This document shows, one piece after another, positions 43,094 to 60,205 of a stretch of DNA of 64,000 nucleotides (the first letter of the stretch is position 1; each line of letters opens with the position of its first letter). The DNA is from Kiritimatiellia bacterium (GTDB taxonomy: Bacteria > Verrucomicrobiota > Kiritimatiellia > JAAZAB01), in assembly GCA_050944835.1 (NCBI GenBank), contig JBMNRV010000004.1, positions 12,695 through 76,694 of the forward strand. The letters run 5' to 3'. Made by a program: the position numbers and the translations under genes. The notes below the pieces were generated by a model that was not told the origin of the DNA, did not search any database, and saw only the letters and a program-made list of their open reading frames with translations.

Positions 43094-43133
43094 CACCCCG
43101 CCTGTCCTATTAAAGACTGGTGGAGAATAGTCA

Positions 43134-43865
43134 CTATGACTTCTCCTTTCCCAGATCATTAGGCATCGTTTGTGCGGTAATATACGCCTGTTGTGGATGA
43201 TTGGGCGTAGCGGGAAAGGCCAGATTGAGCTGTTTCTCCTTGACCATAGGCGATAGATACTGCGCCTGTAACGGCTTTGGCTTTCGATTCACGAGCGCCG
43301 CCAAAGCGCCAAGTGTCACATACTGTTCGCTGCAAATCTTTCTGATCACCGAACGCATCTGTTCTCGACTAATTCGTTGTTTCTTGCGTGGAAGCTGTGC
43401 AATAGCTTCGATTTCGCGTAGCTTCTCTGGCATGAGATGCTCAAGGCTATCAATCAAAGGTTCACTGTGATAATTTGACACCACTCGTCCCTGTCTGTCG
43501 CGAAGGAGTTCCGCCTCCTTATATGTAGAGCTACCGCCGTTAAGTGGGGAGCTGCCGTCGTTAAGTGGGGAGCTGCCGCCGTTAAGTGGGGAGCTCCCAC
43601 CGTTAAGTGGGGAGCTCGTCACCTTACCGAACACGTCGTCGGGATGAGGTAAATCAAGCCCCTTCAGGTGATACACGGCGCCGCGTCCGCGGCCAGCTAA
43701 CGTCAGCAGTTGTTTATTATGGACCAACTGGTGCAGAATCCGTGACAGGTCGGCGGGATGCTTCCCTGTCAACTGTGCCAGGCGCGCTCCCTCATCGGCC
43801 GCAAGCAGACATACCATCCCCATTACCACGCCGATAATCATCTGAATTTTGAAGATTGCTTTCAT
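43134..43865 (-). CDS. Hypothetical protein with two winged-HTH-like segments flanking an SSPLNGG heptad repeat; possibly a remnant of a larger RecG-C-terminal-HTH / AlbA_2-type regulator
   Basis: N-terminal hydrophobic stretch, then ...LAQLTGKHPADLSRILHQLV...GRGRGAVYHL. The C-terminus ...LGALAALVNRKPKPLQAQYLSPMVKEKQLNLAFPATPNHPQQAYIT resembles the end of AlbA_2/HTH-type 'putative transcriptional regulator' proteins. Confidence 0.45.
   Translation of the reverse strand: MKAIFKIQMIIGVVMGMVCLLAADEGARLAQLTGKHPADLSRILHQLVHNKQLLTLAGRGRGAVYHLKGLDLPHPDDVFGKVTSSPLNGGSSPLNGGSSPLNDGSSPLNGGSSTYKEAELLRDRQGRVVSNYHSEPLIDSLEHLMPEKLREIEAIAQLPRKKQRISREQMRSVIRKICSEQYVTLGALAALVNRKPKPLQAQYLSPMVKEKQLNLAFPATPNHPQQAYITAQTMPNDLGKEKS
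43531..43618. repeat. 4 x 21-bp near-perfect tandem repeat (ccgNcgttaagtggggagctS), in-frame (SSPLNGG x4) inside the CDS at 43134-43865
   Basis: Read directly from the sequence. Confidence 0.9.
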
Positions 43866-43901
43866 TTCAGATTTCCAACCAGGGTGGGAGGGACCACGGA
43901 T

Positions 43902-43991
43902 GGTGCGAGCCGCACTGGCGGTGCGAGCCGCACTGGCGGTGCGAGCCGCACTGGCGGTGCGAGCCGCACTGGCAGTGCGAGCCGCACTGGC
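43902..43991. repeat. 5 x 18-bp perfect tandem repeat (ggtgcgagccgcactggc; last copy agtgcg...) in the 5' leader 37 bp upstream of the start codon of the 43134-43865 gene
   Basis: Read directly. The repeat is in frame with the downstream ATG, contains no start codon, and has an in-frame stop at 44013-44015. Confidence 0.9.
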
Positions 43992-44102
43992 AGTGATGAA
44001 CCCCGGATTGGATTAAACCGCCAAAGCGCCAGCAACTAATTTCTTTCCCCTACCTTGCCGTCTTGGCGGTTTATCTATTCCTCGCTCTTCGGAGAGAACA
44101 AG

Positions 44103-45869
44103 CTACTTGGCGGTTTCAATCGGCTTGACTGCATATATTCCGCGTGCCGACCGGACTTCAATGGCCAACTGGTCATTTGCGCCGGTCCGCGCCAGCCATT
44201 CGAGTTCCACCTTACCAATCCGCGCCGGGAGCGGATCAATCGCCGTCTCCCGCCGCCCCTGTAATATTTCCATCGCTCCCGAAGACTTTAGGCACACATT
44301 AACTTCGGCATGGGGAACGACGCTGGCGCTCATCCGGGTGATATAAGTTGGGAGCTTGCCGGTATTCCTGATCACGGCCTTGACACGGTATATGCCGTCG
44401 GCTATCGGAACGGCGCTCGCCGCGCTGATTTCAATTTCAGGCGCCCAGGTCATGTATTCCAGGCAGAAGGCGACACACTTGGCGCACAATTCGGCTCTTT
44501 CCTCGGGAGGCGGATTGACGTGGCCGATGATATTAAATCCGCCTATTTCAACTTTTCCAAGCTGGGGATGGTCAAACGGTTTCCATTCATGAAACACGCC
44601 GCCATCGGGATGTTGGTCGTGCCAACGGAGCATTGCCAGGCCGAGCGGTTCCGGAAAATCCGGACCAATAACGTCTATGGACGTGTAATCGAACATAGGA
44701 AACGCCTGTCTGGAATTAAAACCCAGGTAATTATAAATCATGCCAAGCTCAAACACTAACGCGAGCTTGCCTTGGCGTTCATAACACCAATTCCAATAGG
44801 AGCCCGTAGTTTCGCCTTGCGGTTTGCCGGTTTTGATTTCCTCGTAACTGCTTAGCAGCGGCAGACCGGTCATGGCCTGCGCCTTTTCTCCGATCAGCGC
44901 GATCAACCGTGCGTCTTCGTCGTATTCGGCGGCCGTTTTAATGGCAGCCGTCGGATAAAAAATGGCCTGATTGCCGCCATGGAAATCCAAAACACCGACA
45001 ATATTTGTATGGCCAATAATAAAATCGGCCATGGCGCGCGTCTCCGGCTCGGACAACGGATATTTGCCCTGCCCCAGGAAATGGGGATAGGGCCGCCAAT
45101 TGGCAGTCGGAAAATCCCGGTTGAAGTCGCAACGCGCTTGAGACTGGTTCCGCGCCGTATCAAGTTCGCCGCCGTCCCAATCGTGGATCATTCCCTCGTC
45201 CACCAGGTAATAATACTCACCGGCGATTTGCGTGAGACGGCGGGTAAGCACAAGGCGGCTGTCATTGGTGGAAAGCACACACAGCCCGTCCGGACTCGGC
45301 CAACGCATGGACAGGATTTTGCCGTCACCGTCAATGTCTTCGGGCGTGATGCTGTTCTTTTGCGGCGCATCCACATACTTGCTGCGACACCATGAATTAT
45401 TGGAGGTGCGCAGAACATATTCCGCCCCATCAACGGCCAACCGCGGAATAATGTAAACCACCCTTTTGCCTAGCAGAGAGCGCAAAGCATCATCCCGGGA
45501 ATAATTGGCGCACAAATGCTCCGCCAGAACCAAGCAAAGCCGGCTACCCGTCATTTCAACGGCGTGCAAGTTGGCTTGGAACACGAAAGCCGGGCGATAC
45601 TCCAATGGAATCCCGTCCGAACGCTCCGCCGCAATTTCAAGGAGCCAGACATTGCGTCCCTCGGGAGTGACGGCCATGGATTGCAAGGAAACAAGATTCG
45701 GATAAGCCGCGGCCAGCGCCTGCACCTTGGCGGTCAATTGCGCATAATTGTCAAATCCGCCATAACTGGACGCGGCGGCCGACTTGATATTTTCAGGTTT
45801 TACCGGTTGCATTCCAGCCGCAAGCGCCGCGGCAACCAAAAACATAATATGCCATGATTTCATATGCAT
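44103..45869 (-). CDS. M14-family zinc carboxypeptidase, secreted
   Basis: YDNYAQLTAKVQALAAAYPNLVSLQSMAVTPEGRNVW (M14 N-region); HAVEM (HxxE zinc ligands); IIPRLAVDGAEY; DFNRDFP; SEPETRAMADFI; DFHGGNQAIFYP. Start moved to MHMKSW because the listed N-terminal extension overlaps the upstream gene in another frame. Confidence 0.7.
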   Translation of the reverse strand: MHMKSWHIMFLVAAALAAGMQPVKPENIKSAAASSYGGFDNYAQLTAKVQALAAAYPNLVSLQSMAVTPEGRNVWLLEIAAERSDGIPLEYRPAFVFQANLHAVEMTGSRLCLVLAEHLCANYSRDDALRSLLGKRVVYIIPRLAVDGAEYVLRTSNNSWCRSKYVDAPQKNSITPEDIDGDGKILSMRWPSPDGLCVLSTNDSRLVLTRRLTQIAGEYYYLVDEGMIHDWDGGELDTARNQSQARCDFNRDFPTANWRPYPHFLGQGKYPLSEPETRAMADFIIGHTNIVGVLDFHGGNQAIFYPTAAIKTAAEYDEDARLIALIGEKAQAMTGLPLLSSYEEIKTGKPQGETTGSYWNWCYERQGKLALVFELGMIYNYLGFNSRQAFPMFDYTSIDVIGPDFPEPLGLAMLRWHDQHPDGGVFHEWKPFDHPQLGKVEIGGFNIIGHVNPPPEERAELCAKCVAFCLEYMTWAPEIEISAASAVPIADGIYRVKAVIRNTGKLPTYITRMSASVVPHAEVNVCLKSSGAMEILQGRRETAIDPLPARIGKVELEWLARTGANDQLAIEVRSARGIYAVKPIETAK

Positions 45870-45885
45870 ATTTTTTGCCTTTTTC

Positions 45886-47484
45886 CTAGTAGACATTGAA
45901 GAACGTGCCTCTCCGGATATATTCGTAAGCGCCCATATCCACAACACCGTAGCGGATGCGCCGGCGGCCGTCCAGATCAAGCTGCCCATCCGCCACCCAC
46001 TGGTTATCGCCTTGATCAATGCAGGGCGAATCGGATTTCAGACGGAAATCGCCGGCCGCGTAATTTGCAAACCCCGCATCGCCAGCAATGTTATTGGCGC
46101 CGATAGTTATAGCATTGGTGTTATACGCACATGAATTATACACCACGCCAGTGTAATAGCCGTAATCCACCACGCTGTAAATATCGTTTCCCGGATGAAC
46201 AGCGTTGCCCCTATTGCTTTGAGCAATGGTGTTATAGATGCCGGAACCGCCGTGACGCACACTTACACCGCCATAGACGCTCCCCAATGATTTATTGCTG
46301 ACTACGGTACAGTTGATGATTTTGCCATAGTTTGCTGTATAGAACAAAACCGCCGCGCCATTAGCATCATAAGCGGTATTGCCCGCCACCAGAGAATTTT
46401 GAAGCGTTCCGCCCACAGTTATATACGCCCCGGCGCCGCGACCGGCATGATTGCCGATGAGATGACTGCCGCTGACAAAACAATTTGCATTTAAATACGC
46501 TCCGCCACCGTGGCCATCTCCGTTCGTCGCATAGTTCCAACTGATATTACAGTTACTGATCACTATATACGGATCCTGGAGATAGCAATAAATCCCACCA
46601 CCGTATGATGCCTCGTTAGACACAATTGTGCAGCGCGCCACTGTGGCGGTGCCCCAGATAAACAGCCCGCCGCCGTAATTGGCTGACCAGTTATTGGCAA
46701 TGACACTGTCCGCTACCGCCACCTCAACCAGCGACGTCCCATTGCGCATGGCCATCCCGCCCCCGCCGTTCCCCGCCGACGTTATATAAGAATAATTATT
46801 GCTGATAAAGCATCTGCGCACGACCCCCTTCATGAACGTATAAATTCCCCCGCCGGAAGCCTTGGCATGATTTTCATAAATCTGACAGTCCACAATCAGC
46901 CCATTATTCAAGCCCACTCCTCCACCTGTCCAGCCCGACTCCATATTCACGCTGTTATAGCTCACCACGCAGTTGCTCAACATGCCGCCGCCGTCGACCT
47001 TAACCCCACCCGCGTCCTGCGTAGACCGATTCCGGGTGATAATGCAGTTTTTTACGGTCCCGCCCTTAGTGGTTATCTGCACTCCGCCGCCGGCCGCACC
47101 GGCGCCGTTGGTGATGGTAAACCCGTCCACCACTGCATCCGCGTGATTGAGGTAAAAACAGCGGTAGGTGTCCCGGCCGTTCACAAAAGTCTCTGTCCGG
47201 CCGTACAAACTGGTGACAATAATGCCGGAACCTACCGTAACCACATCATTCAGATTATACGTGCCGTTGGACACCAACACCACGTCGCCAGGCTCATTCG
47301 CCTTGGCTACTCCCTGGTTGATGCTGGCCACGGCGTTAGCCCAGGAATCACCGGAGTTCCCGTCATTCCCAGCCAACGACACGTAAACGGTTTTCGCCCA
47401 TACTCCGCAAGTGGCCACCAAAAGACAGCCCAGCCAAACACATCCGCGCAACAACCGACTCCAATCCAATAATGCGACCTTCAT
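45886..47484 (-). CDS. Secreted right-handed parallel beta-helix repeat protein with C-terminal DMGAYE tail; carries the conserved MKVALLD... N-terminal leader
   Basis: Gly-rich helix rungs (GGGVQITT, GGGIYCY, GHGGGAYL). C-terminus VVDMGAYEYIRRGTFFNVY. Paralog of the 28-1665 protein. Confidence 0.7.
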   Translation of the reverse strand: MKVALLDWSRLLRGCVWLGCLLVATCGVWAKTVYVSLAGNDGNSGDSWANAVASINQGVAKANEPGDVVLVSNGTYNLNDVVTVGSGIIVTSLYGRTETFVNGRDTYRCFYLNHADAVVDGFTITNGAGAAGGGVQITTKGGTVKNCIITRNRSTQDAGGVKVDGGGMLSNCVVSYNSVNMESGWTGGGVGLNNGLIVDCQIYENHAKASGGGIYTFMKGVVRRCFISNNYSYITSAGNGGGGMAMRNGTSLVEVAVADSVIANNWSANYGGGLFIWGTATVARCTIVSNEASYGGGIYCYLQDPYIVISNCNISWNYATNGDGHGGGAYLNANCFVSGSHLIGNHAGRGAGAYITVGGTLQNSLVAGNTAYDANGAAVLFYTANYGKIINCTVVSNKSLGSVYGGVSVRHGGSGIYNTIAQSNRGNAVHPGNDIYSVVDYGYYTGVVYNSCAYNTNAITIGANNIAGDAGFANYAAGDFRLKSDSPCIDQGDNQWVADGQLDLDGRRRIRYGVVDMGAYEYIRRGTFFNVY

Positions 47485-47575
47485 ACTACCCCTCCTGTTA
47501 TGTATTAATGTTACCTGTCCGTGTTCTCTCCCGTCCGTGTCCGTCTTTTTTATGTTACCCTCCTGTTATGTATTA
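47375..47575 (-). repeat. Conserved leader cassette copy 1: 5'UTR (duplicated cattaatacataacaggagg segment) plus first ~35 codons MKVALLDWSRLLRGCVWLGCLLVATCGVWAKTVYVSL
   Basis: Aligns with 53350-53480 and 57790-57915 (minus-strand reading ...ttaatRcataacaggWgg...ATGAAGGTCGCATTRTTGGAT...). Confidence 0.8.
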
Positions 47576-47593
47576 ATGTTTCACCGACAACAC

Positions 47594-50500
47594 TCATAAA
47601 GACCGGCGCCATGAACGATGCAGGGTGATTTTGTCGCCCGGCCCCACCACCATGAGCCGGATCATCCGGCGGCCATCGCCGTCCCGGTCGGGAAAATGCT
47701 CTGGATTGACAGGGCCAACCGCCTCTTCCAGTTCTATTTCCCTTTCACCGACCGACACCACCCGCCCCACCGGCTCGTGCGCCTCGTTGACAACCGTCAT
47801 GCCCGGTTCCACATAAAACAAAGCGTCTGGATACACCCGCAGTCGGCGCCCCTTAATCCTATCAACGTACAACACATTTTCATAAAGTTCGTTATCGCCG
47901 ACATTGAACCGATCCGCGGCCAGTATCTTTTCAACCGGTATCGCGCTCCCATAAATCCCATTCGTAAGTCCTCGCGTCACAATGGCCGTGCCACCCGCCG
48001 GCTGAAGCCCTTGCAGTATCGGGCCGGAAAGCGTTATTTCCCCTTTCTCATAGTCAACGCTTTTTACCACCGCCGTAAGGTCCGCCAGTTCATCCTGCGG
48101 CGGCGGCAGCAGCGACTCAAGGCCGGCGCTCCTATTGTTATCCAACAGATATATCCACCGTAACTCGCCGTCGGCGCCCTGCTCCAGCGCCGCCGTGCGG
48201 GCAGCGATTTTTACATCCCCGCCGTCCAACTCCAAAATGGAAGCGGACTCCCCATCCGGAGTCTCCAGTCTTGAAAAGACCACGTGCTTCCGGCCACCCA
48301 TGGATATTTCCAGCGCCACCGGCAGATCCTGCCCCGCCAGCGGCAGAACACGCACCGAATCAATGAACGGCGTTTTGCGGTACGGCTCATACACCGCGAC
48401 ATAGACGCTCTCCAGATCATCCCCCGACCGGCGGCGAACCAGAAACTTGACCGGCTCGGAAAATCCGCCCTGCCGTGGAACGCCGTCGCAGGCAAACACG
48501 GTCTCACCCTGTCCGTCCTGGTGGGCGGCAAGAATATGCGCCCGGAGCGCCACATCGTCTGACGCGTCTAAATGCCAGCTCGCGCCGGCGGCGCTGTTAC
48601 CGCTAAGCCTGGCCTCCTGCGCGTTGAACAGCCATTGGAAACCGCTGCCGCGGTAATCCCAATACGGCACATTTCCCTTGTTATAGCGTTTCGCCACATT
48701 TTCCGGCGTGAAACGTGCGTCATCATAAAAACATCCATAGGGAACATTCGTCCCGGCAAGAGTTCCATTAGTGACCGGGGCGCCAAAATCAAGGCTGCTC
48801 TTAAATTCCGCTTTGGGTGGACCGTGCACCAGCCAGTCATGCTGTTTTCCACCGCGGACCCGGAAGATATCCACGATATAAGCATTCGTGGGCGACACAT
48901 CCACGAGCATCAGCGTCCGGCGATAGAGTTTTACGTCATCATAACAATCTTCGGACGAGACCTCCACCAACTGAGCAAAAGCTCCGGGATCATAAACATG
49001 CAAACGCCCCTTGTTAATCTGTCTGGTGGCATTTTCACTTGAACATGTTTTCTTGGTCATCTGCTTGGCGGCGTTGATCATGACGGTATTATGGGCCAAC
49101 GTGTTATAAATATAGGTTTCGTAGAATCCTTTGCTGCCGGTCACATAACCGAAATCCGGAATCAGCGCATGCCCTTGGGAGTATATATCCAACTGCAGGC
49201 GATCCCAGTGGGAATGAAACGGATAGTAACCATAAAGAATTGCCAGGGCCGTCCGATTGGTTCCCGTGCCGGTCTGCAGGCTGGCCCAACCCAGTCCGGG
49301 TAAAAGCTCGCTGGTTACACCCAATACATCTGGATATTTTCCGGCTGACGCCGCCAACTCCTCGTCAGTGGCCCACTCGCAAAAGAGGTCTGGAGCGCGC
49401 GGCTTGCCGGTAAAGAGGTCTGTTTTATTATTGCCGGACTTGTCACGCCGCATTTGAAGCAGCGCCTTGGCAACAAGCACATCATGCGTCAGGTTGTAAG
49501 CAACCTCAAACACATCACGCTCCCTTACGCTCCCGGCGGCATGTGAGGGAGTGTCGCCAAAGGCCGGCAGGAATTCCCCGGCGCAAATCATCCGCATGGG
49601 CCAGGTGAACATCTTACGGAAACGATCCCGCCGGACAATTTCCTCCATTCGCGTGCGCTCCTTCACGGGCAGACATGGCAATTCATAAGCTATCTTAGCG
49701 AATGAATCAAGCATCAAGGTGTTATAATGCGGGGCAGACCAGGGAAAACCATCGCCATGGATCAGATTGTTGAATTGTTCCTCCAATCCCAGACAACTGA
49801 TATACCATGAGCCCTTTGGCTTCGGATCGGGATTGGATATCGCGCTTTGTATCAATTTGCTATCCCGCAGCGTGACACCCAGCCGCAGGAGCGCCAATTG
49901 CTGCACACCGCAGGAGGAAACCACACGATTATTACCGGCCATAATGTCATCGGCCATAACGCGCAGAAAGCGGCTCTCGATCCGGTCGCAAATTTCCGCG
50001 CCAGTCAGACCGGTCAGCTTTAGAAGCGCCGCGTCATTTTCGATGGCCGGCCGCACAGCATCATAAGCCGGCGGAGCGATGCAGGCCGGGCCCAGACACT
50101 CCCAACCGCGGTTCAGCATGCGCCCCCGGTAGTCAGGGCGCGACTCTCCTTCGCGCGACTGTTTTTCATAAAAATACCGCGGGTAATATTCAGCCACCTG
50201 CCAGAGCAACAAGGCGCAGGCATGGGCGTAACGCGCATCATCAGTGAACAGGTAAGCCCGGCTCAAATCATCCAGCGCCGGCAGAAAATGGCGCATAATC
50301 AGTTGGTGCGCATAATACGCCACAAACCACACTTTGCGGTCTTCCCCGGGAACATGCCAACCCCAGCCGTCGTCCGGGAATTCCCCGGTAAGCAGACTGC
50401 GATCCTTGCAACCACTCCTCAAAAATGCCTCAAAATCGTTTGAGGGATACTCCCTGCCATTTGGCGCAGTGAGTTTCCACGGCTTGTCAAAGGACACTTG

Positions 50501-50833
50501 CCAGTTATAGGGGTACATCTCCAAATCGCCCGACTTGAAGGTAACGCCGACTTCATAAGGAATTACCGCGCGCGGCACGTTGGGTGGCGGAACAAGCGTG
50601 CGCAACTTTTCATCGTCGTATTTCAGCCACTTGTCCGTGCGGGCAATGATTGCGTCCCGTTCCAGCCGCGCCCACTCATATTTTTCAAGGTTTTGTTTTA
50701 AAACCGCCATTTTGGCGGCGGTATAATAAGCGCGCTCCGCTCCGGCCCGGGCCGAATTAACGCCCGCGCAAAACAGCGCAGTCAGGCAGAAGATAATCCC
50801 ATGCGCGCAGTTTATTGTAGCGGAGCGCTTCAT
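47594..50833 (-). CDS. Heparinase II/III-like polysaccharide lyase (alginate-lyase-like N-domain plus Hepar_II_III C-domain), secreted, 1079 aa
   Basis: YGYYPFHSHWDRLQLDIYSQGHALIPDFGY matches the heparinase II/III H-x-H-x-D...G...D-x-G core. Signal peptide present. GGAGGTG RBS. Confidence 0.75.
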   Translation of the reverse strand: MKRSATINCAHGIIFCLTALFCAGVNSARAGAERAYYTAAKMAVLKQNLEKYEWARLERDAIIARTDKWLKYDDEKLRTLVPPPNVPRAVIPYEVGVTFKSGDLEMYPYNWQVSFDKPWKLTAPNGREYPSNDFEAFLRSGCKDRSLLTGEFPDDGWGWHVPGEDRKVWFVAYYAHQLIMRHFLPALDDLSRAYLFTDDARYAHACALLLWQVAEYYPRYFYEKQSREGESRPDYRGRMLNRGWECLGPACIAPPAYDAVRPAIENDAALLKLTGLTGAEICDRIESRFLRVMADDIMAGNNRVVSSCGVQQLALLRLGVTLRDSKLIQSAISNPDPKPKGSWYISCLGLEEQFNNLIHGDGFPWSAPHYNTLMLDSFAKIAYELPCLPVKERTRMEEIVRRDRFRKMFTWPMRMICAGEFLPAFGDTPSHAAGSVRERDVFEVAYNLTHDVLVAKALLQMRRDKSGNNKTDLFTGKPRAPDLFCEWATDEELAASAGKYPDVLGVTSELLPGLGWASLQTGTGTNRTALAILYGYYPFHSHWDRLQLDIYSQGHALIPDFGYVTGSKGFYETYIYNTLAHNTVMINAAKQMTKKTCSSENATRQINKGRLHVYDPGAFAQLVEVSSEDCYDDVKLYRRTLMLVDVSPTNAYIVDIFRVRGGKQHDWLVHGPPKAEFKSSLDFGAPVTNGTLAGTNVPYGCFYDDARFTPENVAKRYNKGNVPYWDYRGSGFQWLFNAQEARLSGNSAAGASWHLDASDDVALRAHILAAHQDGQGETVFACDGVPRQGGFSEPVKFLVRRRSGDDLESVYVAVYEPYRKTPFIDSVRVLPLAGQDLPVALEISMGGRKHVVFSRLETPDGESASILELDGGDVKIAARTAALEQGADGELRWIYLLDNNRSAGLESLLPPPQDELADLTAVVKSVDYEKGEITLSGPILQGLQPAGGTAIVTRGLTNGIYGSAIPVEKILAADRFNVGDNELYENVLYVDRIKGRRLRVYPDALFYVEPGMTVVNEAHEPVGRVVSVGEREIELEEAVGPVNPEHFPDRDGDGRRMIRLMVVGPGDKITLHRSWRRSL

Positions 50834-51235
50834 TATTCAAACACCTCCAATGTCATCCCACACACAGACAGACGCGTATGGAGCCCGGACTGGAGCAAAC
50901 CGCCAAGGCGCCAAGGGAAGCAAGAGAGAAAGTTTATTGGAGTGATATGGCAGGCCGCGCTGTCCGCCATGCGGGCATGGATCGGCGGACACCTGGATAC
51001 TCGAATGAATTCGCGTATCAGGGTGTCAACCAATCCGCCAGACCGGCAGATGCCGGTCAACGCGGCATGCGTTCGTGATCCAAAAAACTTGCTTCTTCCT
51101 CCACGTCTCCGCGTCTTCGCGTGACACCATACCCTCTTGTGCATCTTGTGCATCTTTGTGGCTAATCTCCTTCCCTAAACTCCTCCTCCGCGTTCCCGCG
51201 CCTCCGTGTGCCCCTCTCCCTTCTCAATCTGCGTT

Positions 51236-53203
51236 TTACTCTGCAGAATCATTACCGTTACTTACACGTCCATCGTCCTTTTCGTCAACGACACCGCGGC
51301 CGAGCGCCCAGAACAGGTATTTCAAATCAAAAATTCCGCCGATACAAATCCAGATGAGGACGACTACACCGATTATAAAACCGAGCCAGGCCTTAAAATG
51401 CCAGAACTTAGACCACCAAGCCACAGAGGTCTCGCCAAAACAATGGTAGATCGTTACACCTGCAAAAAACACCAGCCAGGCAAGCTGCCAGAACTGCCAG
51501 GCAAAATAGATTATTTTATCGCCAAAGGTGAACTCGTCGGTCAGGCCTAGCCGCTTCCAACTGAAGATTTTCACACTCTTGACACCGTGCTCTCCGGCCT
51601 TGTCATACTTGCCGCGGTGCAGCAGTTTCTCAAGATTGTAATCTTGCTTATAGGTCAAAAGGGAAATGACAACATAAAGCGTCGTGCATATCAGGCAGGA
51701 AGTAATATATATCTGTTGGCTATTGAAGAGCAGTTCGCCTGATTCCTTCAGGAAAAAGGCCGGCTTGATCTGTTGCAGCGCCATGCCGCCAAGCGACAAC
51801 ACGGCGCCGGTAATCATCGCGGTCCATGCCGCCGGCGCTGTGCCCTTTTTCCAGTATAAGGCTCCGATAATACACACCCCTGCCCCGGAGACAAAAATAC
51901 TGAAAGTGACGTTCAAAAAGACAAACAGATACTCAACCTGCCGGAAAAAATAACCGAAGAGATAAATCAGCGCGCCGACTAGAACGATTGAAATGCGCAG
52001 CCAGAAAATATGTTGAGTAGTGGTGAACGGTTGCTTGCGCAGAGGCGCCACCACATCCTGAATAAAAATTGAACCCCATGAATGAAAATTGGTGTCATCC
52101 GCGCTAATGGAAATTGCCGCCATGAAAGTGGCAAACAGGCCTAACATCCCGACTGGTAAAACCAAACCAAGCGCCGTAGGCGTCAACATCTGTGTGCGCA
52201 GGGTCGGGTTGGCAATGCCGCTTAAAACCTGATTAACTTTTTCAGCCACCGGCTGATAGCTGGAGTTGTACATGATCACGTAAACAGCGGCCGGGATCAT
52301 CATCAACATCAGAGCTTGAACCACGCCGCGCCAGCCGCTTATAAGTGAGGCCATCCGGTTCTCATGCGGGGTTTTTGCGGCGCAAGCATAGCCCCGCGAG
52401 CCCTGCCAAGCAAACTGGGAATAAAACGTGGTAAACATTCCCCAGACCCAATACCATGCATTATAAGCCTTGAGTCCTTCAGAGCGGTAGGGATGCACCA
52501 GCGAAACCCCCTCCGGCGCCGCGGTCATTGCATTGATAATGGAATCCCAGCGGGGCACAACCGCAACGAATACAAATACCAGCAACACGATAAACATGAT
52601 ATTGCAGAACATGCCCTGTATAAAATCGGTAACCGTGATGGCCACCTGACCGCCGACAGTCGCGAAGAAGACCCCAATCGCTATAATCAAAAACAAGATG
52701 GAGGCATAAGTGTCCAACGGCATACCCGCCACGGAATACGTCTCTGGCAAGCCGCAAAAATATATAAAAAACCGCGCCGTAACTGCTGGGAAAATGCCGT
52801 AATTTATGATGCCGGCCACCCAGGCCAGGATGCCGGTGAAAATCCTGAATTTTTTGCTATAGCGGGCTTCAAACAATTGGGACAGCGTAAACACCCGCGT
52901 TTCCCGGTAACGATAAACAAGCCAGCCGGTCAATGCCAAAAACAAAAAAACCGGCCAACGTGTCATATACCACCAAGCCGGCGTGAAACCGGCAACGTAA
53001 TACATTTCAAAAGCGCCAATTATGGAGACCGTGCCCAACCAGGTAATATCCGCTGAAATGCTCAGCACATAACGACCGGCGCAGCGGTTGGCCGCCAGAA
53101 AATCGGCGGGACTTTTGATATAGCGGTTGCAATAAAAAAGAACCGCTACCAGAAACGCGATAAATACTCCGAGTATGCTCCAGTCTATCCAATGCATGTA
53201 CAT
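51236..53203 (-). CDS. Sodium:solute symporter family (SSF) transporter, 655 aa
   Basis: 13-14 TM helices and SSF-type sequence (e.g. ...GGQVAITVTDFIQG..., RYIKSPADFLAANR). Confidence 0.8.
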   Translation of the reverse strand: MYMHWIDWSILGVFIAFLVAVLFYCNRYIKSPADFLAANRCAGRYVLSISADITWLGTVSIIGAFEMYYVAGFTPAWWYMTRWPVFLFLALTGWLVYRYRETRVFTLSQLFEARYSKKFRIFTGILAWVAGIINYGIFPAVTARFFIYFCGLPETYSVAGMPLDTYASILFLIIAIGVFFATVGGQVAITVTDFIQGMFCNIMFIVLLVFVFVAVVPRWDSIINAMTAAPEGVSLVHPYRSEGLKAYNAWYWVWGMFTTFYSQFAWQGSRGYACAAKTPHENRMASLISGWRGVVQALMLMMIPAAVYVIMYNSSYQPVAEKVNQVLSGIANPTLRTQMLTPTALGLVLPVGMLGLFATFMAAISISADDTNFHSWGSIFIQDVVAPLRKQPFTTTQHIFWLRISIVLVGALIYLFGYFFRQVEYLFVFLNVTFSIFVSGAGVCIIGALYWKKGTAPAAWTAMITGAVLSLGGMALQQIKPAFFLKESGELLFNSQQIYITSCLICTTLYVVISLLTYKQDYNLEKLLHRGKYDKAGEHGVKSVKIFSWKRLGLTDEFTFGDKIIYFAWQFWQLAWLVFFAGVTIYHCFGETSVAWWSKFWHFKAWLGFIIGVVVLIWICIGGIFDLKYLFWALGRGVVDEKDDGRVSNGNDSAE

Positions 53204-53230
53204 AATAAGACCCTGTTGTTTTCCGATTCC

Positions 53231-53453
53231 TTAATAGATACTGAAAAACGTGCCGTTATGAATATATTCGTAAGCGCCCATATCCACAATGCCGTAGCGG
53301 ATGCGCCGGCGTCCATCCAGATTAAGCTGCCCATCCGCCACCCAATGACACGTAAACGGTTTTTGCCCATACCCCGTCAGCGGCCGCCAAAAGACAGCCC
53401 TGCCAAACCCATCCGCGCAACAACCGACTACGATCCAACAATGCGACCTTCAT
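53231..53453 (-). pseudogene. Deletion remnant of a beta-helix paralog: first ~38 codons (MKVALLDRSRLLRGWVWQGCLLAAADGVWAKTVYVSL) fused out of frame to the last ~32 codons (...QLNLDGRRRIRYGIVDMGAYEYIHNGTFFSIY*)
   Basis: 53231-53345 aligns with 45895-46010 (3' end of gene 45886-47484), and 53345-53460 aligns with its 5' end. The junction lies at a ttgg(c/g)tgg microhomology, and the fused reading frame stops after 43 codons (GGGWAA*). Confidence 0.7.
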
Positions 53454-53480
53454 ATTCCACCACCTGTTATGCATTAATGT
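53350..53480 (-). repeat. Conserved leader cassette copy 2 (drives the remnant ORF, immediately upstream of the SSF transporter)
   Basis: ...ggtgaaacattaatgcataacaggtggtggaatATGAAGGTCGCATTGTTGGATCGTAGTCGG... Confidence 0.8.
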
Positions 53481-53527
53481 TTCACCAAGTCGTTTGCAAC
53501 AATTCAAGCATACGCGTTGATGACATT

Positions 53528-56500
53528 TCACCCCGACATTCCTGGGCCTTTCCATGCCCTGATAAAAACATGGCCAGCGCCGCGCAATAGTTGCGCGCTG
53601 ATCGTCAGCCTGGATTTGTCCGGGCCGACAGCAATGTCGTTGTCAGCGAGTTCGCCGCGCAAATTCCGGTTTTCATCATAAACCGCCACCTTCGAGACTG
53701 GGAACGGCAAAACAATCTCTATTGCATAAGGCGTTTCCAGACGGTAAAGCATTTCTTCCCCGGCATCCTCGCACAAATCCAAGGCAAGCATGACCGGCAC
53801 AAAATAACTATCACCCGCTTGCAGGTCGCAAATCTGGAATGAATCGCCGACCGCAAAGCCGTCGTTGTCGTCAACCTGTATAATATACTCATGACGCACC
53901 TTATTGATATGTGTCGCGCGGCCGTTGCAGGAATTAAGAATCATCTTGTTCTTAAAATAATCGTTATCGCGGTTTTGCAAATCAAGCGGGCCTAAACTGT
54001 AAGGCAGGAAATACCAGGTTTTAATCGTATTGTTTGAGACCAACCCGGCGACCTTGCCATCCGCGATGAAAAACGACGGTTCCCGGACGGTGACGGTTGC
54101 CTTATCCTCTCCCGCTATCGGCTGAATTTGATTGATATGATAGAGACTGCCATGGGAATATGCGCCGGCATTGAAATGGATGCGGTCACACCCCGAAAAT
54201 TCCGGGAGCCGCCCGCTGAGCGTCATTTCATTCCGCGCATAATCAATGGCGGCAATCTCACCCTGAAACGGCTGCGGGGCAATTGCTTTAATTTTCCAGC
54301 CACCGAAATCAGCCTCGGTACCGTTGAATAAACGCATTTTCAGCAATTGGCCATCTTTCACCGAGCAGAAAAAGTATTCGCCGCTGAACGAGCCCAGGGA
54401 ACGATCCCCCTCGCGCAACAGGTGCGCAACCGCCGGATTCCCGGCCCGGGCAATATAATCCAGCCGTTTTTCAGCCGGCCGGGGCGTATTGGCCGCAGGC
54501 AACCCCCCACTCTTGTTATCCAGATACATTTCCACCAACCCCATGCCGCCATCGGCCGTCAAACAAAACCGGAGCAAATGTTTTCCGGCGGACAAATGGA
54601 TGTTGCCGACTGGGACAGTTGCATATTCAAAAGTTGAAGTGGCGCTTTTCCCATCAAAGACGGAGCCGACCGGCTGGTCGTCAATGAACGCCTGCCATTC
54701 GCCGAAGTGGCGCGTCCGCAGAAACTTAAAAGCCAGATCGTATTCCGCCGACTCCGGTGTTTCAAACTCAAAGGCGATGGAATTTCCCTTCAGAGCCGAG
54801 GCGATCATCAGTGAATTATAAAGAGCGTCACGTTCCGTATTCAGGCCCAATGACTCCTTGACCGGCGCTTTTATAAATTCGTAAATCATCAGATTATTCT
54901 TATCGGGACGAGTTTCGTCCGCAGCGACAGTGTTTACGCTTAAAACCGCTCCGCAGGGATCCGGATCGCTTTCCGCAGAAGGTCCGCCGGCGGAAACGGG
55001 AACAACCGTCAACTCCCCGACCTGCAAGACCGCCGGCTCACGCTCATAGAAATGGATAACGCTGAAAAACCGGCTGACACCGTCTCCTTGGTCCCGGGCA
55101 ATCACAAATTTGGTTTTGGTCGGCGGCGGCGACAAGGGTCCATCAGCCACGAATATGCTCCGGCCCGCCGCCGGCAGCATAGTCAATTCCACGTTTGCCG
55201 GGTAATATTCGTCGCACGCGCTCCAGCGCGCGCTCCATAGGCAGTTGCCTTCGGCTTGCGCATAGTCAATCAGGAACCCATACCCGGCGCCAGGCGGACC
55301 CCGCTGGTATTTAGACTCGGGCGTCCATCCCTTAACACGGTAATCGGCCATAATGGCATCGCCATAACGAATGTCCGGTCCGGCCATGGAACCGGCGCGC
55401 ACAATCTCCCCCATGGCCAGACCGGTTGTGGAAAAATCGCCCTCAATGGAATGGAAGGAATAGTCGCGCTGGCGGCCACCGCCAACATCAAAAATATCAA
55501 CCAGATAAACATCGCTATCGTTAATGTCAACAAGCGCCAGATTACGGCGATACAAGGAAATATCCTCAGCCTGATAAGCGGTTTCATCATGTGCCTCGGC
55601 GACACTGAAGCCGGGCGAAGCAAAAAAGTAATTCAAGCTTCCCCCGCCGCCGGCATCCTCAAGCTGCGACTTGCCGTTAACGGCAACAGTATTATGCGCA
55701 ATGGTGTGCCCAGCCCAGCCGTAGCGGAAATGATTGGCGCCGCCACCGGTTTCCAGCGACAATTCCCGCCCCAGACCGTAAAACAGAAAAGCCAACTCGT
55801 CCAGATGCCCGTGGTTTAGGGTGGGACCATAGCGGAAAAACACACTGGACTCGTTCGTCCTGGGACCGGCACGAAGCAAAACCAGCCCATTGCAGCCGAA
55901 CAAGGCGCTTGGGTTGCGGTCCGGCGTCTCCGGCGGCGGATTGCTGGTAAAATCCGGCGCATGGAAAAGGAGCCAATCATCGGCTTCATAGGCGCCGACG
56001 ACATCCCCGCCGGTATAACCATCCAGAATCTGCCGGTATTGCGAAGCGTTGTCAGGATCATACACGTAAAACTTTACGGCATTGATAAAATCGCGGCGGT
56101 TGAACGGCGGTGGATTGCGGATGATGGCCCGGTCAATCGTATGGTCGCCGAAGTGCGGGAAATGGCCGGAACAGAGATATTTTGACTCACCGCCCAAAAT
56201 GCCTTTACGGTAAACGGGATGGGCGTAAAAATTATACCCCCGGGGATAGTCCGGATTGCGCAGGTTGACGCAAATCGTAGCAATCATTTCCCAAAGCTCG
56301 CGCGTATGGCTTTCATACATCCCTGATGTTTCGTAATAACAGCCATCCCGGTCAAAAGTGTTGGCAAAAAAATTCGGGAGGGCGTAAGGACTAAGGCGCA
56401 GAAGATGATCAACATAATATTTGATCCCCAAGGTTGACCCGACCGACATAACCCCCATAGCCAGGTCCAATCCCCCATTGGTGAAACGATACTGGCCGCT

Positions 56501-57889
56501 GTTGAGCAGCGCCATGCAGTAATCGGCGCTTTTCAACAGAAGTTCATGACGGACATGTTCCTCAATTGTCGTATAGCGGGAGTCGCGGGAAGGCCCGGAA
56601 AAACTCTCCGACATGCAGAGAATGTCATAAGCGGGCGCATAATGACTCGACAAACAAAACGCCACCTGATATTGGGACGCCTGCATGCGTCCGCCACCCG
56701 GATAGTCAACCGGCCCGTCGCAAGCAGGATCAAGCGAGGCGATACAATCCAGGATCAAGGCCGCTTTGTGCGCGTATTTTTCCTCGCCGGAAAGCACATA
56801 CATATAGCAGAGCGACTTCAAAACACTGTCCATTAATTTCTTGACACAGGAAGAATTATAAACACCTAAAAAGCAATGGCGCTTGCCGGTGTCAGGATTA
56901 AACCACCCTTGACCATCATCCGGATGTTCCGCATCTGGAAATTTATGGCGGTTCTTGCAGACAACCTGATGCGGATCTTCAAAACCAACGGCATGCAGAC
57001 GTTCACCGCAAAGCGGGCAAAGCAAGTAATCCAGCCCCCAGATAAAAACCGCATTGGTGGCAGGCATCATTTTCACAATATCAGCATCACTAATATCCAG
57101 CCATTTCTCCGCGGTTTTTTGATATTCCCGATATAACTGCCGGGCCCAGTCATATTTTTCAACCCGCTGCCGGGCCGCGGCAATGTCGTCATGGTGCAAA
57201 AAGAGCGTGGGATGTTCCACAGGATAATTAAAACCTATAGCCTCCGGAATCACCGCGTCCGCCTTGGTATCCGCGTTGAGAAACTCAATTTCATTAATGG
57301 CAAATCCACGGTTGGTGACGTTCCATGTTTCCACGAAAGCAATGCTTATGTTCGTGGCCATGACGGCAGGAAAAGCGATCTGCTGCGGGCCCTCGGCGTT
57401 GATAAAGACTCTCTCAATGGGCGCGTCGCCGTTCAAGGTAAACCGCATCGTTTTCCAGCGGGCAAATCCTTCCCGCGCGCGGAACCTGGTGGTATCCTGA
57501 ATAGAAATGCGGATTTCATTAACTTGGACGGCATTCTTGAACTTAAAATCAAGAACTATGGGGGAACCGGCATCGTATTTTTTATAAAAAAGCGATGAAA
57601 GGTCTCTGTCAAAAAGCGCATTTTTCAGGCGCGTCTTTTCCGCGTCCGTTAATCTTAAAGAGATCTCAACCTCCACATTATCCGGCTGAAAGACGGCAGT
57701 TGGCGGACAGGCAACGGCATCCGGAGATGGACATTGCTCCGCATGACACTGGCAACCGGCTGCAAACAGGCACGCTGATCCCAAAACAACAAACAACCGC
57801 GCCCATACCCCGCCGGCGGCCGCCAAAAGACAGCCCAGCCTAACACAGCCACGCGCCAACCGATTACAATCCAACAATGCGACCTTCAT
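53528..57889 (-). CDS. Giant (1453-aa) heparinase II/III-like polysaccharide lyase carrying the conserved MKVALLD... leader
   Basis: FFRYGPTLNHGHLDELAFLFYGLGRELSLETGG...HNTVAVNG is the Hepar_II_III core. N-terminus MKVALLDCNRLARGCVRLGCLLAAAGGVWA. Confidence 0.7.
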   Translation of the reverse strand: MKVALLDCNRLARGCVRLGCLLAAAGGVWARLFVVLGSACLFAAGCQCHAEQCPSPDAVACPPTAVFQPDNVEVEISLRLTDAEKTRLKNALFDRDLSSLFYKKYDAGSPIVLDFKFKNAVQVNEIRISIQDTTRFRAREGFARWKTMRFTLNGDAPIERVFINAEGPQQIAFPAVMATNISIAFVETWNVTNRGFAINEIEFLNADTKADAVIPEAIGFNYPVEHPTLFLHHDDIAAARQRVEKYDWARQLYREYQKTAEKWLDISDADIVKMMPATNAVFIWGLDYLLCPLCGERLHAVGFEDPHQVVCKNRHKFPDAEHPDDGQGWFNPDTGKRHCFLGVYNSSCVKKLMDSVLKSLCYMYVLSGEEKYAHKAALILDCIASLDPACDGPVDYPGGGRMQASQYQVAFCLSSHYAPAYDILCMSESFSGPSRDSRYTTIEEHVRHELLLKSADYCMALLNSGQYRFTNGGLDLAMGVMSVGSTLGIKYYVDHLLRLSPYALPNFFANTFDRDGCYYETSGMYESHTRELWEMIATICVNLRNPDYPRGYNFYAHPVYRKGILGGESKYLCSGHFPHFGDHTIDRAIIRNPPPFNRRDFINAVKFYVYDPDNASQYRQILDGYTGGDVVGAYEADDWLLFHAPDFTSNPPPETPDRNPSALFGCNGLVLLRAGPRTNESSVFFRYGPTLNHGHLDELAFLFYGLGRELSLETGGGANHFRYGWAGHTIAHNTVAVNGKSQLEDAGGGGSLNYFFASPGFSVAEAHDETAYQAEDISLYRRNLALVDINDSDVYLVDIFDVGGGRQRDYSFHSIEGDFSTTGLAMGEIVRAGSMAGPDIRYGDAIMADYRVKGWTPESKYQRGPPGAGYGFLIDYAQAEGNCLWSARWSACDEYYPANVELTMLPAAGRSIFVADGPLSPPPTKTKFVIARDQGDGVSRFFSVIHFYEREPAVLQVGELTVVPVSAGGPSAESDPDPCGAVLSVNTVAADETRPDKNNLMIYEFIKAPVKESLGLNTERDALYNSLMIASALKGNSIAFEFETPESAEYDLAFKFLRTRHFGEWQAFIDDQPVGSVFDGKSATSTFEYATVPVGNIHLSAGKHLLRFCLTADGGMGLVEMYLDNKSGGLPAANTPRPAEKRLDYIARAGNPAVAHLLREGDRSLGSFSGEYFFCSVKDGQLLKMRLFNGTEADFGGWKIKAIAPQPFQGEIAAIDYARNEMTLSGRLPEFSGCDRIHFNAGAYSHGSLYHINQIQPIAGEDKATVTVREPSFFIADGKVAGLVSNNTIKTWYFLPYSLGPLDLQNRDNDYFKNKMILNSCNGRATHINKVRHEYIIQVDDNDGFAVGDSFQICDLQAGDSYFVPVMLALDLCEDAGEEMLYRLETPYAIEIVLPFPVSKVAVYDENRNLRGELADNDIAVGPDKSRLTISAQLLRGAGHVFIRAWKGPGMSG

Positions 57890-57915
57890 GTTATCCTATC
57901 TGTTATGTATTAAGC
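57790..57915 (-). repeat. Conserved leader cassette copy 3
   Basis: ...gcttaatacataacagataggataacATGAAGGTCGCATTGTTGGATTGTAATCGG... aligns with the other two copies. Confidence 0.8.
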
Positions 57916-58063
57916 TAAAAAGAAATAATCTTGCGCCATGACACAACCTGCTTCAAAAAAAATAGTTGTTTTTTACACATGAACATTTAGCCTTAAAAAA
58001 ATCGTTGCTGTTAAATAAATTTATGTTGGTTCCCAAATAAATTTCGCCTGAATCCATGACGGG

Positions 58064-59341
58064 TCAAGCGTCCACCATGCCGGCCTCCGCCACCATCCGC
58101 TCCACCGTCTCATATAAACGCGGTAACTCACTGATGGCGGCCCGGCCGCCGGGTCCAGCCCAGGGCAACCCCTGCTGGCTGGGCCACTCGCCGTTTTGGA
58201 TGAAACAGTCAGTCGCTTGAGATAGATCGTCAATTTGCAGGAATTCGGCCTGATCCTCCGGCTGGACTTTCCGCTGGATATATTGCGGAGAAATTTGGTG
58301 GATGCGCCCGGCGGCAACATACACCAGATCGCACAACTGCACAAACGGACGCGTATCCTCCAACCGGGTCAACGGCCGCTCCGCCTCGCCGCGCAAATAT
58401 GCATAATAAGCACAATGGTTTTCCTTCAGCTTAGTCATCGGCGTATCCGGCGCCAACGGTATTGGTATTGTTTCCTGTCGGCCGTCATGCCAAGCAATCC
58501 GGTATCCTTCTTCCTTAACGAAAATGCGCGCCTTATCACAAACCAGCCACTCCATCCGTTCAGGTTGCCAGCAGGCATGGGACATCACTATCGTCAGACG
58601 CACACCACCGCCCAGACCGGCGCGCACAAAGGACGTATCCATGCCTTGGATGGAATGCGCGCGGTAGAGTTCAGCCTCCGCCCATTCGACGGGCGCCCAA
58701 TCCAAGACATCACGCATACCGCCCCAAAAGAGAATATTATGCACGTAATGCGCCATAGCGTTACCCATGCCGGAATCCAACACCAGCCGCCCGTTCAGCA
58801 TCAGCCGCCCAGCCCATGGGGCCCGGCTGTAATAGTTGTTGGAGCGCTCCCATAGCCCGCGATAGCCGACTTCGCGCAGTTGGCCGAACTCGCCGGCCAC
58901 CAAGCGCTGCTTCATTTTCCGGCGCTCGCCTTCGACAATATGATTGAATCCCACCTGCGTCAACTTTTCGGCCCGCGCCTCCACCTCCAGCATCTCGTCC
59001 AATTCCTGGTAATTCAACGTGGGCGGCTTTTCCAGATAAACCGCCAAGCCGCGCTCGATACAGGCGCGGTGCATAGGGGCGTGCAGCGGCACCGGCGTGG
59101 GAATCACCACCATATCCAATTCGGCGGCACAGTAATCCAGCATGGCAAGATAATTGTCAAACACCTTGATGCCGCGGCGCCGGTATTCCCATTCCGACAT
59201 TTTGTCTTTGAATTTGCTCAAATCCGGATCGCAGGAACAGACCAACCGACAGGCGCCGGTTGCCTCCAACTGCTTCACCGCAAGCTGATGCGAGCCCGCG
59301 AAGCCGCCCATCCCGATAATGCCGACACTAATTGGCGCCAT
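58064..59341 (-). CDS. Gfo/Idh/MocA-family oxidoreductase (cytoplasmic)
   Basis: MAPISVGIIGMGGFAGSHQ Rossmann N-terminus, 425 aa. Confidence 0.8.
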   Translation of the reverse strand: MAPISVGIIGMGGFAGSHQLAVKQLEATGACRLVCSCDPDLSKFKDKMSEWEYRRRGIKVFDNYLAMLDYCAAELDMVVIPTPVPLHAPMHRACIERGLAVYLEKPPTLNYQELDEMLEVEARAEKLTQVGFNHIVEGERRKMKQRLVAGEFGQLREVGYRGLWERSNNYYSRAPWAGRLMLNGRLVLDSGMGNAMAHYVHNILFWGGMRDVLDWAPVEWAEAELYRAHSIQGMDTSFVRAGLGGGVRLTIVMSHACWQPERMEWLVCDKARIFVKEEGYRIAWHDGRQETIPIPLAPDTPMTKLKENHCAYYAYLRGEAERPLTRLEDTRPFVQLCDLVYVAAGRIHQISPQYIQRKVQPEDQAEFLQIDDLSQATDCFIQNGEWPSQQGLPWAGPGGRAAISELPRLYETVERMVAEAGMVDA

Positions 59342-59417
59342 ATTGGAAAATTCCTTTTACACCACCCTTTCAAACACCTGGTTTCTCTGTCCCACAGGGA
59401 TCCAGAAAATCAGACGG

Positions 59418-60170: not shown

Positions 60171-60205
60171 AACTCATCGCCTTATACGATGTTAACCCTG
60201 CCGGC

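Follow-up and report, generated by a model that had tools for sequence, protein, structure and literature searches.

A probable accessory glycan-utilisation island in a Kiritimatiellia species, with a repeated 5' cassette that is probably a duplicated gene end and not a promoter

Kiritimatiellia are recognised degraders of complex, often anionic glycans, and their glycan enzymes are, to our knowledge, largely uncharacterised. In a 64,000-nt stretch of DNA from a Kiritimatiellia bacterium (assembly GCA_050944835.1, contig JBMNRV010000004.1, positions 12,695 to 76,694; hereafter the window), two heparinase II/III-like proteins (lyase1 and the giant lyase) are encoded together with a right-handed beta-helix protein, an M14 carboxypeptidase-like protein and a sodium:solute symporter family (SSF) transporter. 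One segment, here called the cassette, is found three times in this locus: at the 5' end of the beta-helix gene (copy A), upstream of the SSF gene (copy B) and at the 5' end of the giant-lyase gene (copy C). Does the repeat represent a common promoter of a recently duplicated gene module, as an earlier note made from the sequence had suggested, or did it arise in another way? We propose, with a probability of roughly 0.7, that a Kiritimatiellia species of anaerobic-digester sludge carries here an accessory island for glycan utilisation and that the cassette is the 5' end of the beta-helix gene, not a promoter. Pfam and NCBIfam scans bore out the gene content, the gene order and all five protein annotations given in that note, and the host, placed outside the Bacteroidetes, is indeed a member of the Kiritimatiellia. 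Coordinates of all features are listed in Table 1.

Employing a repeat finder, MAFFT and self-BLAST, which gave results in agreement, we compared the copies with each other. Copies A (47369-47512) and B (53338-53481) are 87.5% identical over 144 nt (BLAST E 2e-41), A and C 83.3% over 114 nt (E 4e-23), and B and C 84.1% over 113 nt. A second repeat, 45883-45999 versus 53227-53344 (87.3% over 118 nt), corresponds to the 3' end of the beta-helix gene. The cassette and the beta-helix 3' repeat are the sole long dispersed repeats in the 64 kb and are far above chance. The copies, each with an ATG, are all in direct orientation on the coding strand. They enclose the giant lyase at a spacing of 4,436 nt and the SSF-lyase1 pair at one of 5,969 nt. 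The three-site cassette is real, with E values of about 1e-23 to 1e-41, but at 83-88% identity in self-BLAST of the window it is not nearly identical, as had been claimed; nor are the copies short chance matches of less than 70% identity, the outcome that the earlier note had named as a refutation.

Most of the cassette is coding sequence. The coding share amounts to ~90-115 nt, or 30-38 codons, with the consensus MKVALLD..RL.RGCV.LGCLL.A..GVWA; judged from its residues, this peptide is a Sec-type signal peptide (30 aa) ending in VWA. Upstream of the ATG, only 22-28 nt are common to all copies: an A/T-rich motif, (A)ACATTAATRCATAACA / AACATTAATRCATAACA, followed by a Shine-Dalgarno sequence. 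The 13-nt core of this motif, TTAATRCATAACA, was found at the cassettes only in the 64 kb. The repeat had been described as about 130 bp of 5' untranslated region (5'UTR) plus signal-peptide codons; the length is right (113-144 nt), but the non-coding part is just the 22-28 nt and the rest is codons.

Copy B is the beta-helix gene minus codons ~39-492 (~1.37 kb), so that codons 1-38 are joined out of frame to the last ~40 codons. Its open reading frame (ORF; 53453-53322) stops after 43 codons and, compared with copy A, has the substitutions L18Q and C26D in its hydrophobic core; core-breaking changes of this kind are expected of a decaying relic. The term beta-helix remnant used in the earlier note was appropriate. 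Copy C, in contrast, is fused in frame to the giant lyase. Right after the borrowed VWA, the protein continues with RLFVVLGSACLFAAGC, a second hydrophobic stretch and a lipobox-like LFAAG/C. The sole distant homologue of the giant protein (P0116, 34% identity) has a quite different N-terminus; therefore, the cassette appears to have been grafted ahead of a pre-existing lipoprotein-type signal.

How far did the copying extend? Over ~800 aa, the identity between lyase1 and the giant lyase is 24%, compared with 84-88% at the DNA level for the beta-helix pieces; therefore, nothing more than the beta-helix gene with its 5' end was copied recently. The earlier note was right to suggest that the cassette had been duplicated and recombined in recent times; a recent duplication of a whole module consisting of lyase, beta-helix and downstream gene is contradicted by the divergence of the lyases. 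By sequence comparison, the two PF07940 proteins are old paralogues. From these data we infer that the cassette would be native to the beta-helix gene that is still intact (copy A). This gene may once have been present a second time, downstream of the giant lyase, in a copy that decayed through the 1.37-kb frameshifting deletion (copy B), and the first ~113 nt of the gene may also have recombined onto the 5' end of the giant lyase (copy C), which would have generated a chimeric N-terminus with a borrowed signal peptide ahead of the protein's own lipoprotein-type signal. The direct-repeat geometry would be expected from duplicative insertion or unequal homologous recombination. The locus resembles known cases in which segmental gene duplication left pseudogene relics behind and recombination exchanged 5' ends (signal peptides), in that an intact gene, a deleted frameshifted copy and a 5' fragment fused in frame occur together as direct repeats around intervening genes; it differs from them in the two tandem signal sequences on the giant lyase and in the short, slightly over-conserved A/T-rich motif.

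We searched for the cassette beyond the window. The DNA pattern ATGAAGSTCGMATTRTTGGAT gave chance 21-22-nt matches only (Rhizobium, Luteolibacter and others) in genome and metagenome contig collections that do not include the source genome. A profile of the 36-aa cassette peptide, compared with 1.84e9 representative proteins, gave significant matches to the relic ORF and the beta-helix cluster only, plus one weak junk match; the giant lyase itself was unlisted.

The 5' regions of the three copies showed little that would indicate a promoter. No sigma-70-like -35/-10 sites (16-18 nt spacing) were present in 47485-47600, 53454-53530 or 57890-57915, for a consensus that may not suit Kiritimatiellia; in 43-62 kb, promoter-like sites numbered 21, against 17.9 +/- 5.2 in shuffled sequence, and the terminator-like count was also at the shuffle level. 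The three leaders folded no better than shuffled sequence (z +0.25 to +0.85), and Rfam gave no match in the window, cassettes included. For copies A and B, the stop codon of the preceding co-oriented gene lies 10-110 nt ahead. With so short a shared non-coding part, no sigma-70-like site, no folding or Rfam signal and two copies right behind co-oriented genes, the proposed common promoter was not substantiated. In the simplest reading, the cassette is a translation-initiation region plus signal peptide within polycistronic mRNAs. The most promoter-like DNA for the giant-lyase and SSF genes would be the unique spacer upstream of copy C (57890-58063).

The copy A region exists in two alleles. 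In the window, the 22-nt leader motif is tandemly doubled (47491-47512 and 47559-47580, 68 nt apart) and accompanied by MKVALLDWSRLLRG; other strains have one motif and MKLELLDCGRLARG. The allelic difference extends over a ~2.4-kb tract that takes in the leader together with the adjoining 3' part of lyase1 and 5' part of the beta-helix gene. We considered whether a local gene conversion, between copies A and B, had produced the odd window allele and rejected this, because the divergent tract (49440-47060) far exceeds the cassette. Judging from the alignments, the copy A difference is an imported allele. Within the tract, dN/dS was 0.25 for lyase1 and 0.38 for the beta-helix gene; therefore, both genes are under purifying selection. 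Copies B and C were identical across all strains examined.

The entire locus lies in a strain-variable island. In a contig of the same species, L027, window position 43094 is joined to 61401 via 20 nt (CCGAATTTAACCCGCTCGGA) in place of the 18,306-bp block, as established by alignment of the junctions: L027 1-3659 matches window 39437-43094 at 99.2%, and L027 3679-5234 matches window 61401-62956 at 100%. Six other contigs continue from the left flank into island sequence. The block is thereby shown to be polymorphic for presence or absence at a fixed site, as expected of a mobile genomic island. A ~66-nt intergenic element (CCGAATTTAACCCGCTCGGACTGGTTTTTGATCAATGACCGGATTTTTTTGGGAAAGCCCACC) occurs at 61381-61444 and 63052-63118, 1.67 kb apart, with a PAS/response-regulator gene between; the island is inserted in the first of these copies, of which the first 20 nt are gone. 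At the empty site, the element is complete (L027 3657-3722, with its paralogue at 63052-63118). Because the 20 nt of L027 complete the 66-nt element, the empty site is probably ancestral and the 43095-61400 block probably an insertion. Pfam and NCBIfam scans gave no integrase or transposase match among the island ORFs, and no terminal repeats or att-type direct repeats were found at the island ends. The composition of the island is not atypical (GC 52.9% versus 53.2-53.3% in the flanks; tetranucleotide correlation 0.92-0.94, equal to that of flank versus flank).

Proteins of the locus are identical to MGI6086647, MGI6086650 and MGI6086652, which belong to a metagenome-assembled genome at NCBI with the name Kiritimatiellia bacterium. 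The layout was reproduced at 97-100% identity in contigs of at least 5 other samples from independent JGI, ENA and Logan assemblies. One ENA contig (L022) covers window 61220-44872 in one piece, two Logan contigs (run SRR31066179) match the window at 100% identity, and the samples include run ERR10905742 (Logan assembly), which consists of PacBio HiFi data from anaerobic-digester sludge (PMC10541625). The junctions of copies B and C are the same in every assembly, and 7/7 island-bearing contigs covering the repeats share one architecture, with no deletion or amplification variants. At the population level, the locus gives a clean picture of the evolution of such loci, with an island that is present or absent as a whole, a divergent 2.4-kb allele that was imported, a gene in decay and a signal peptide passed from one gene to another. 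It leaves current concepts unchanged, as an ordinary but instructive accessory glycan-utilisation island.

What do the two lyase-like proteins do? Both passed the gathering threshold of PF07940 (24 bits), a check that the earlier note had suggested, and neither matched PF05426 (Alginate_lyase). With the PL17 model NF042990, the giant lyase scored 19 bits against a cut-off of 1400, and lyase1 gave no match. Lyase1 has at least 114 homologues of ~1000 aa, with named sources in Kiritimatiellia, Armatimonadota, Lentisphaeria, Victivallales, Opitutales and Parapedobacter; the giant lyase is nearly an orphan with a central lyase-like core. Single-sequence searches detected weak matches to PL17 alginate lyases and the PL40 protein Uly1040 in the beta-sandwich only. 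A profile of 43 sequences of the lyase1 family matched PL17 (E 1.6e-21) and PL40 (E 7.9e-21) across toroid and sandwich; the PL40 match also spans the C-terminal domain, at 14% identity. The AF2 model of lyase1 (pLDDT 86.7, pTM 0.88) consists of an (alpha/alpha)6 toroid and an antiparallel beta-sandwich. In a Foldseek search of the PDB with this model, PL17/PL40 came top (E ~1e-25, target TM 0.70-0.71), followed by PL39, PL15, PL12, PL21 and PL33 lyases and a dermatan-sulfate epimerase; the top 45 matches were all of the toroid-sandwich fold. The fold of the giant lyase was placed by sequence alignment only.

The two window proteins share the two-domain toroid and beta-sandwich fold with PL17 Alg17c (PDB 4NEI), AlgL17 (9IRQ) and PL40 Uly1040 (9VTK), but they are 14-17% identical to the PL17 structures, are 350-750 aa longer and have extra C-terminal beta domains. 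Judged by the NF042990 score and by identity, neither can be placed in PL17, and both are best described as unclassified relatives of PL17/PL40. The lyase1 family, large, uncharacterised and remotely related to PL17/PL40, could be a polysaccharide lyase (PL) family that is new.

In characterised lyases of this type, an Asn neutralises the carboxylate, a Tyr acts as general acid and a His is the third member of the conserved triplet (PMC12088678, PMC4765187). Based on HMMER alignment, Asn201, Glu254, Tyr258 and His413/His415 of Alg17c correspond to N307, E366, Y370 and H540/H542 of the lyase1 family. The family keeps the equivalents of Asn201, Tyr258 and His413/His415 together with an AHNTV motif; at Alg17c His202, next to the Asn, it has Tyr, and the giant protein has Gly. 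Unlike the PL17/PL40 enzymes, window lyase1 has Ser for the Asn (S307, where 42/43 family members have Asn). It also has S366 for Glu, the sole such case among the 43, Q311 for His and G360 for Arg; Tyr370 and His540 are kept, leaving the Asn/Tyr/His triplet incomplete. In total, lyase1 departs from the family at 16/141 conserved columns, compared with 0-4 in relatives of 48-53% identity, except one at 14. A compensated frameshift was considered as the origin of the motif changes and rejected: alternative frames do not restore GNYGMHQ or RDG..E. The earlier description of two lyases holds for the fold and the PF07940 domain in both proteins, but in lyase1 four near-invariant residues, the neutralising Asn among them, are replaced.

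Since the neutralising Asn is lost, lyase1 probably has an altered or non-catalytic (binding) role, though it is maintained by selection; as a natural active-site variant still under purifying selection, it is, like the large lyase1 family as such, a concrete target for biochemistry. In the giant lyase, Asn471, Glu520, Tyr525 and His693 align with the family residues in a joint alignment (20-23% identity), and the protein, with Asn/Tyr/His kept, looks catalytically competent. The giant protein would be an extracellular enzyme that cleaves a uronate-containing polymer, and uptake of the products would fall to the SSF protein. A uronate-containing substrate is a reasonable guess from the fold, and microbial extracellular polymeric substances are a further guess from the digester habitat. 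The neighbourhoods of distant lyase1 homologues were inspected as a clue to the substrate and no conserved neighbourhood was found, except for a CBM9 protein beside homologue P0003: this 1000-aa protein is encoded directly upstream of P0003 in contigs L024/L025. Most members of the lyase1 family and the giant lyase (residues ~288-320) contain a Cys/His-rich, zinc-ribbon-like insert (CPVHG...CPVGG or CPLCG...C); at the corresponding position in window lyase1 (residues ~88-130, window ~50445-50570), none of these cysteines is present.

Other explanations of the cassette were weighed against its origin as a beta-helix 5' end. A promoter or operator within the cassette could place the beta-helix gene, the SSF gene (via the relic) and the giant-lyase gene under one regulator, perhaps the ArsR/MarR-like protein encoded by the first gene of the island. 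Such a shared cis-regulatory element would account for the restriction of the 13-nt core to the cassettes, its retention with one change in the ~20%-diverged alternative allele and its tandem doubling in the window allele. However, the motif ends 4-5 nt before the Shine-Dalgarno sequence, and the 22-28 nt common upstream of the ATG leave no room for a normal -35/-10/5'UTR arrangement with a sigma-70-like match, of which there was none. The motif is non-palindromic and occurs neither upstream of the regulator gene itself nor in the AT-rich spacer, and no terminator separates copies A and B from the co-oriented genes directly ahead of them. Moreover, most of the conserved sequence is coding, and the similarity either extends further along the gene (A/B) or has a counterpart in the 3' end of the gene (B), a pattern that marks gene duplication. 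We consider common regulation through the cassette unlikely. Very unlikely, in our estimate, is an array in which the repeats serve as portable adaptors of leader plus signal peptide, with homologous recombination adding, deleting and swapping secreted-enzyme genes in the population. Co-oriented repeats do bracket discrete gene units (4,436 and 5,969 nt), one repeat was productively grafted onto a different gene, and the island is accessory and internally mosaic, with a break of the allele segment at the leader (47564/47484); yet the architecture is invariant in the 7/7 contigs, repeats of 113-144 nt with 83-88% identity are poor RecA substrates, and copy B is a decayed pseudogene. An artefact of assembly or binning, with repeats and relic stemming from collapsed or chimeric strain variants, might be suspected in a metagenome-assembled genome with high strain variation at copy A (two alleles). 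Given the identical SRR31066179 contigs, the same B and C junctions in JGI, ENA and Logan assemblies including HiFi data, and the single contig L022 spanning 61220-44872, this is hardly credible.

For the lyase-like proteins, there is a small but appreciable chance that they share the fold but act as uronyl C5-epimerases or bind glycans, and that the island modifies or binds a polymer rather than degrading it. Dermatan-sulfate epimerase 1 has the same fold (Foldseek rank 25), lyase1 is without the Asn and the Glu, genes of the DegT-like and Gfo/Idh/MocA kind, found next to them, typically belong to pathways of sugar-nucleotide modification, and the distant homologues have no conserved catabolic neighbourhood. 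Nevertheless, the top matches by profile and by fold are without exception lyases characterised by experiment, the giant protein retains Asn/Tyr/His, the proteins carry secretion signals with an importer encoded between them, and no glycosyltransferase or polymer-export genes are present in the island. We see little likelihood that several of these ideas hold together, with adaptor recombination re-heading secreted glycan-active genes, the 13-17-nt A/T-rich motif as a real cis-element and lyase1 as a glycan-binding or -sensing pseudo-lyase in a non-Bacteroidota analogue of a polysaccharide utilisation locus (PUL). The interpretation of the region as a glycan-utilisation island with a duplicated beta-helix 5' end has weak points of its own. 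Over the 32 nt that follow the lyase1 stop, the two alleles show 2 mismatches, against a divergence of ~20% in flanking coding DNA (P about 0.03, binomial estimate by hand); this over-conservation, together with the tandem doubling, hints at some cis function, and a weak or non-sigma-70 promoter, or an operator, may lie inside the 22-28 nt leader. The evidence that the cassette is not genome-wide is weak. Enzymatic activity in both lyase families is deduced from sequence and fold, a fold that is also that of dermatan-sulfate epimerase, and the mapping of the giant-lyase catalytic residues, based on a multiple alignment of 20-23% identity, deserves moderate confidence.

Table 1. Positions of the features of the locus in the window
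Feature	Position	Strand	Remarks
Strain-variable island with the entire locus	43095..61400	.	18,306 bp; missing in same-species contig L027
M14 zinc carboxypeptidase-like protein, 588 aa, signal-peptide-like N-terminus	44103..45869	-	PF00246, 129.5 bits, above threshold
Right-handed beta-helix protein, secreted, C-terminal choice-of-anchor Q domain, 532 aa	45886..47484	-	NF041518, 31.3 bits versus cut-off 25
Imported recombinant tract, ~2.4 kb	47060..49440	-	Window versus other strains 10-25% different; flanks ~100% identical
Cassette copy A: leader motif, AGGAGG, ATG (47484), signal peptide of intact beta-helix gene	47369..47512	-	
Extra leader-motif copy 5' of copy A	47559..47585	-	10 nt past lyase1 stop; sole copy in alternative allele of other strains
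Lyase1, 1079 aa, PF07940, own signal peptide	47594..50833	-	PF07940, 44.8 bits; PL17/PL40-like fold
SSF transporter, 655 aa	51236..53203	-	PF00474, 75.2 bits over 432 aa
Cassette copy B, relic of beta-helix gene: leader, codons 1-38, last ~40 codons, stop	53227..53481	-	
Giant lyase, 1453 aa, PF07940, second lipobox-like signal, long extra C-terminal domains	53528..57889	-	PF07940, 45.3 bits
Cassette copy C: 13-nt TTAATACATAACA, weak Shine-Dalgarno, ATG (57889), 30 signal-peptide codons (MKVALLDCNRLARGCVRLGCLLAAAGGVWA)	57800..57913	-	
AT-rich unique spacer 5' of copy C	57890..58063	-	31.6% GC versus 53%
Gfo/Idh/MocA-family oxidoreductase	58064..59341	-	PF01408, 63 bits
Short DegT/DnrJ/EryC1-like protein, 250 aa	59418..60170	-	PF01041, 104 bits
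Winged-helix (ArsR/MarR-type N-terminal domain) protein, 315 aa	60206..61153	-	MarR, 25.3 bits; HTH_metalloreg, 39.6 bits, below cut-off

All genes in 44.1-61.2 kb lie on the minus strand, as shown by the ORFs and the Pfam and NCBIfam scans; the eight co-oriented genes are probably transcribed as one or two polycistronic units. The winged-helix protein, encoded by the first gene of the block, is a candidate local regulator on the strength of its predicted domain. The DegT-like protein is ~110 aa shorter than the Pfam model (360 positions); it is also 250 aa long in contigs L017-L019 and appears as a 195-aa call in ENA contig L022, in which genes are fragmented. This protein may be truncated or degenerate. 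The SSF protein passed the PF00474 threshold and scored 92 bits with TIGR00813, below the cut-off of 184 bits. For the M14 gene, the probable start codon is the ATG at 45869, which gives the 588 aa called in L021, and not the TTG of a 638-aa ORF.

The AF2 model of the beta-helix protein (pLDDT 68, with a good core) is a right-handed parallel beta-helix with a repeating three-strand coil. The nearest structures were PL6 lyases, AlgE epimerases, Pel9A and tailspikes, generic matches with TM 0.33-0.49 and 10-20% identity. Placing the protein in a PL family by fold was rejected, since these are generic beta-helix matches with TM <0.5, and no catalytic motif was identified in it.

The PL17/PL40-like fold, taken with the transporter, makes a PUL-like system for an acidic polysaccharide, as the earlier note had envisaged, plausible but does not point to a particular substrate. 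Genes of uronate catabolism are absent from the window, the remaining genes of which are housekeeping genes. Like Bacteroidota PULs and non-Bacteroidota gene clusters of carbohydrate-active enzymes, the island combines co-oriented genes for secreted or lipoprotein-type glycan-active proteins with an importer and a local regulator, and like many PULs it is strain-variable. Unlike Bacteroidota PULs, it has an SSF symporter and a Kiritimatiellia host; no SusC-like TonB-dependent transporter or SusD-like lipoprotein was found among the Pfam-scanned ORFs of the island and the window.

Several minor features were observed at and beyond the island ends. Directly 3' of the M14 gene, a 237-nt gap contains an 18-nt unit (GGTGCGAGCCGCACTGGC) repeated 5.2 times (43902-43995, 98% matches), each unit with a GTGCG-AGC-CGCAC hairpin; the array is also present in L021 and may be terminator-like. 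At the left end of the island, a 243-aa ORF (43134-43865, minus strand) includes a 21-nt tandem repeat (x 4.2; 43528-43616, SSPLNGG repeats). It gave a weak Fic-like_C match and, read by eye, has a winged-helix-like segment; it looks like a fragment of a larger regulator gene. A 20-nt sequence, AAACCGCCAAGRCGSCAAGG, occurs twice in inverted orientation (44053-44072, minus; 50897-50916, plus; 0.02 expected by chance) and brackets the lyase1/beta-helix/M14 block. The start of the window holds a second glycan-related group (28-1665, 2082-5699 and 5901-7304), consisting of a beta-helix protein (30% identical to that of 45886-47484, with another N-terminus), a 1205-aa GHL15 and CBM9 protein and a GH109-like Gfo/Idh/MocA protein. 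The genes at 21524-25713 encode a ClpC-type AAA+ chaperone, a McsB-like protein-arginine (guanidino) kinase and a UVR-motif (McsA-like) protein; together they make up a CtsR/McsAB/ClpC stress module of Gram-positive style in this Kiritimatiellia genome.

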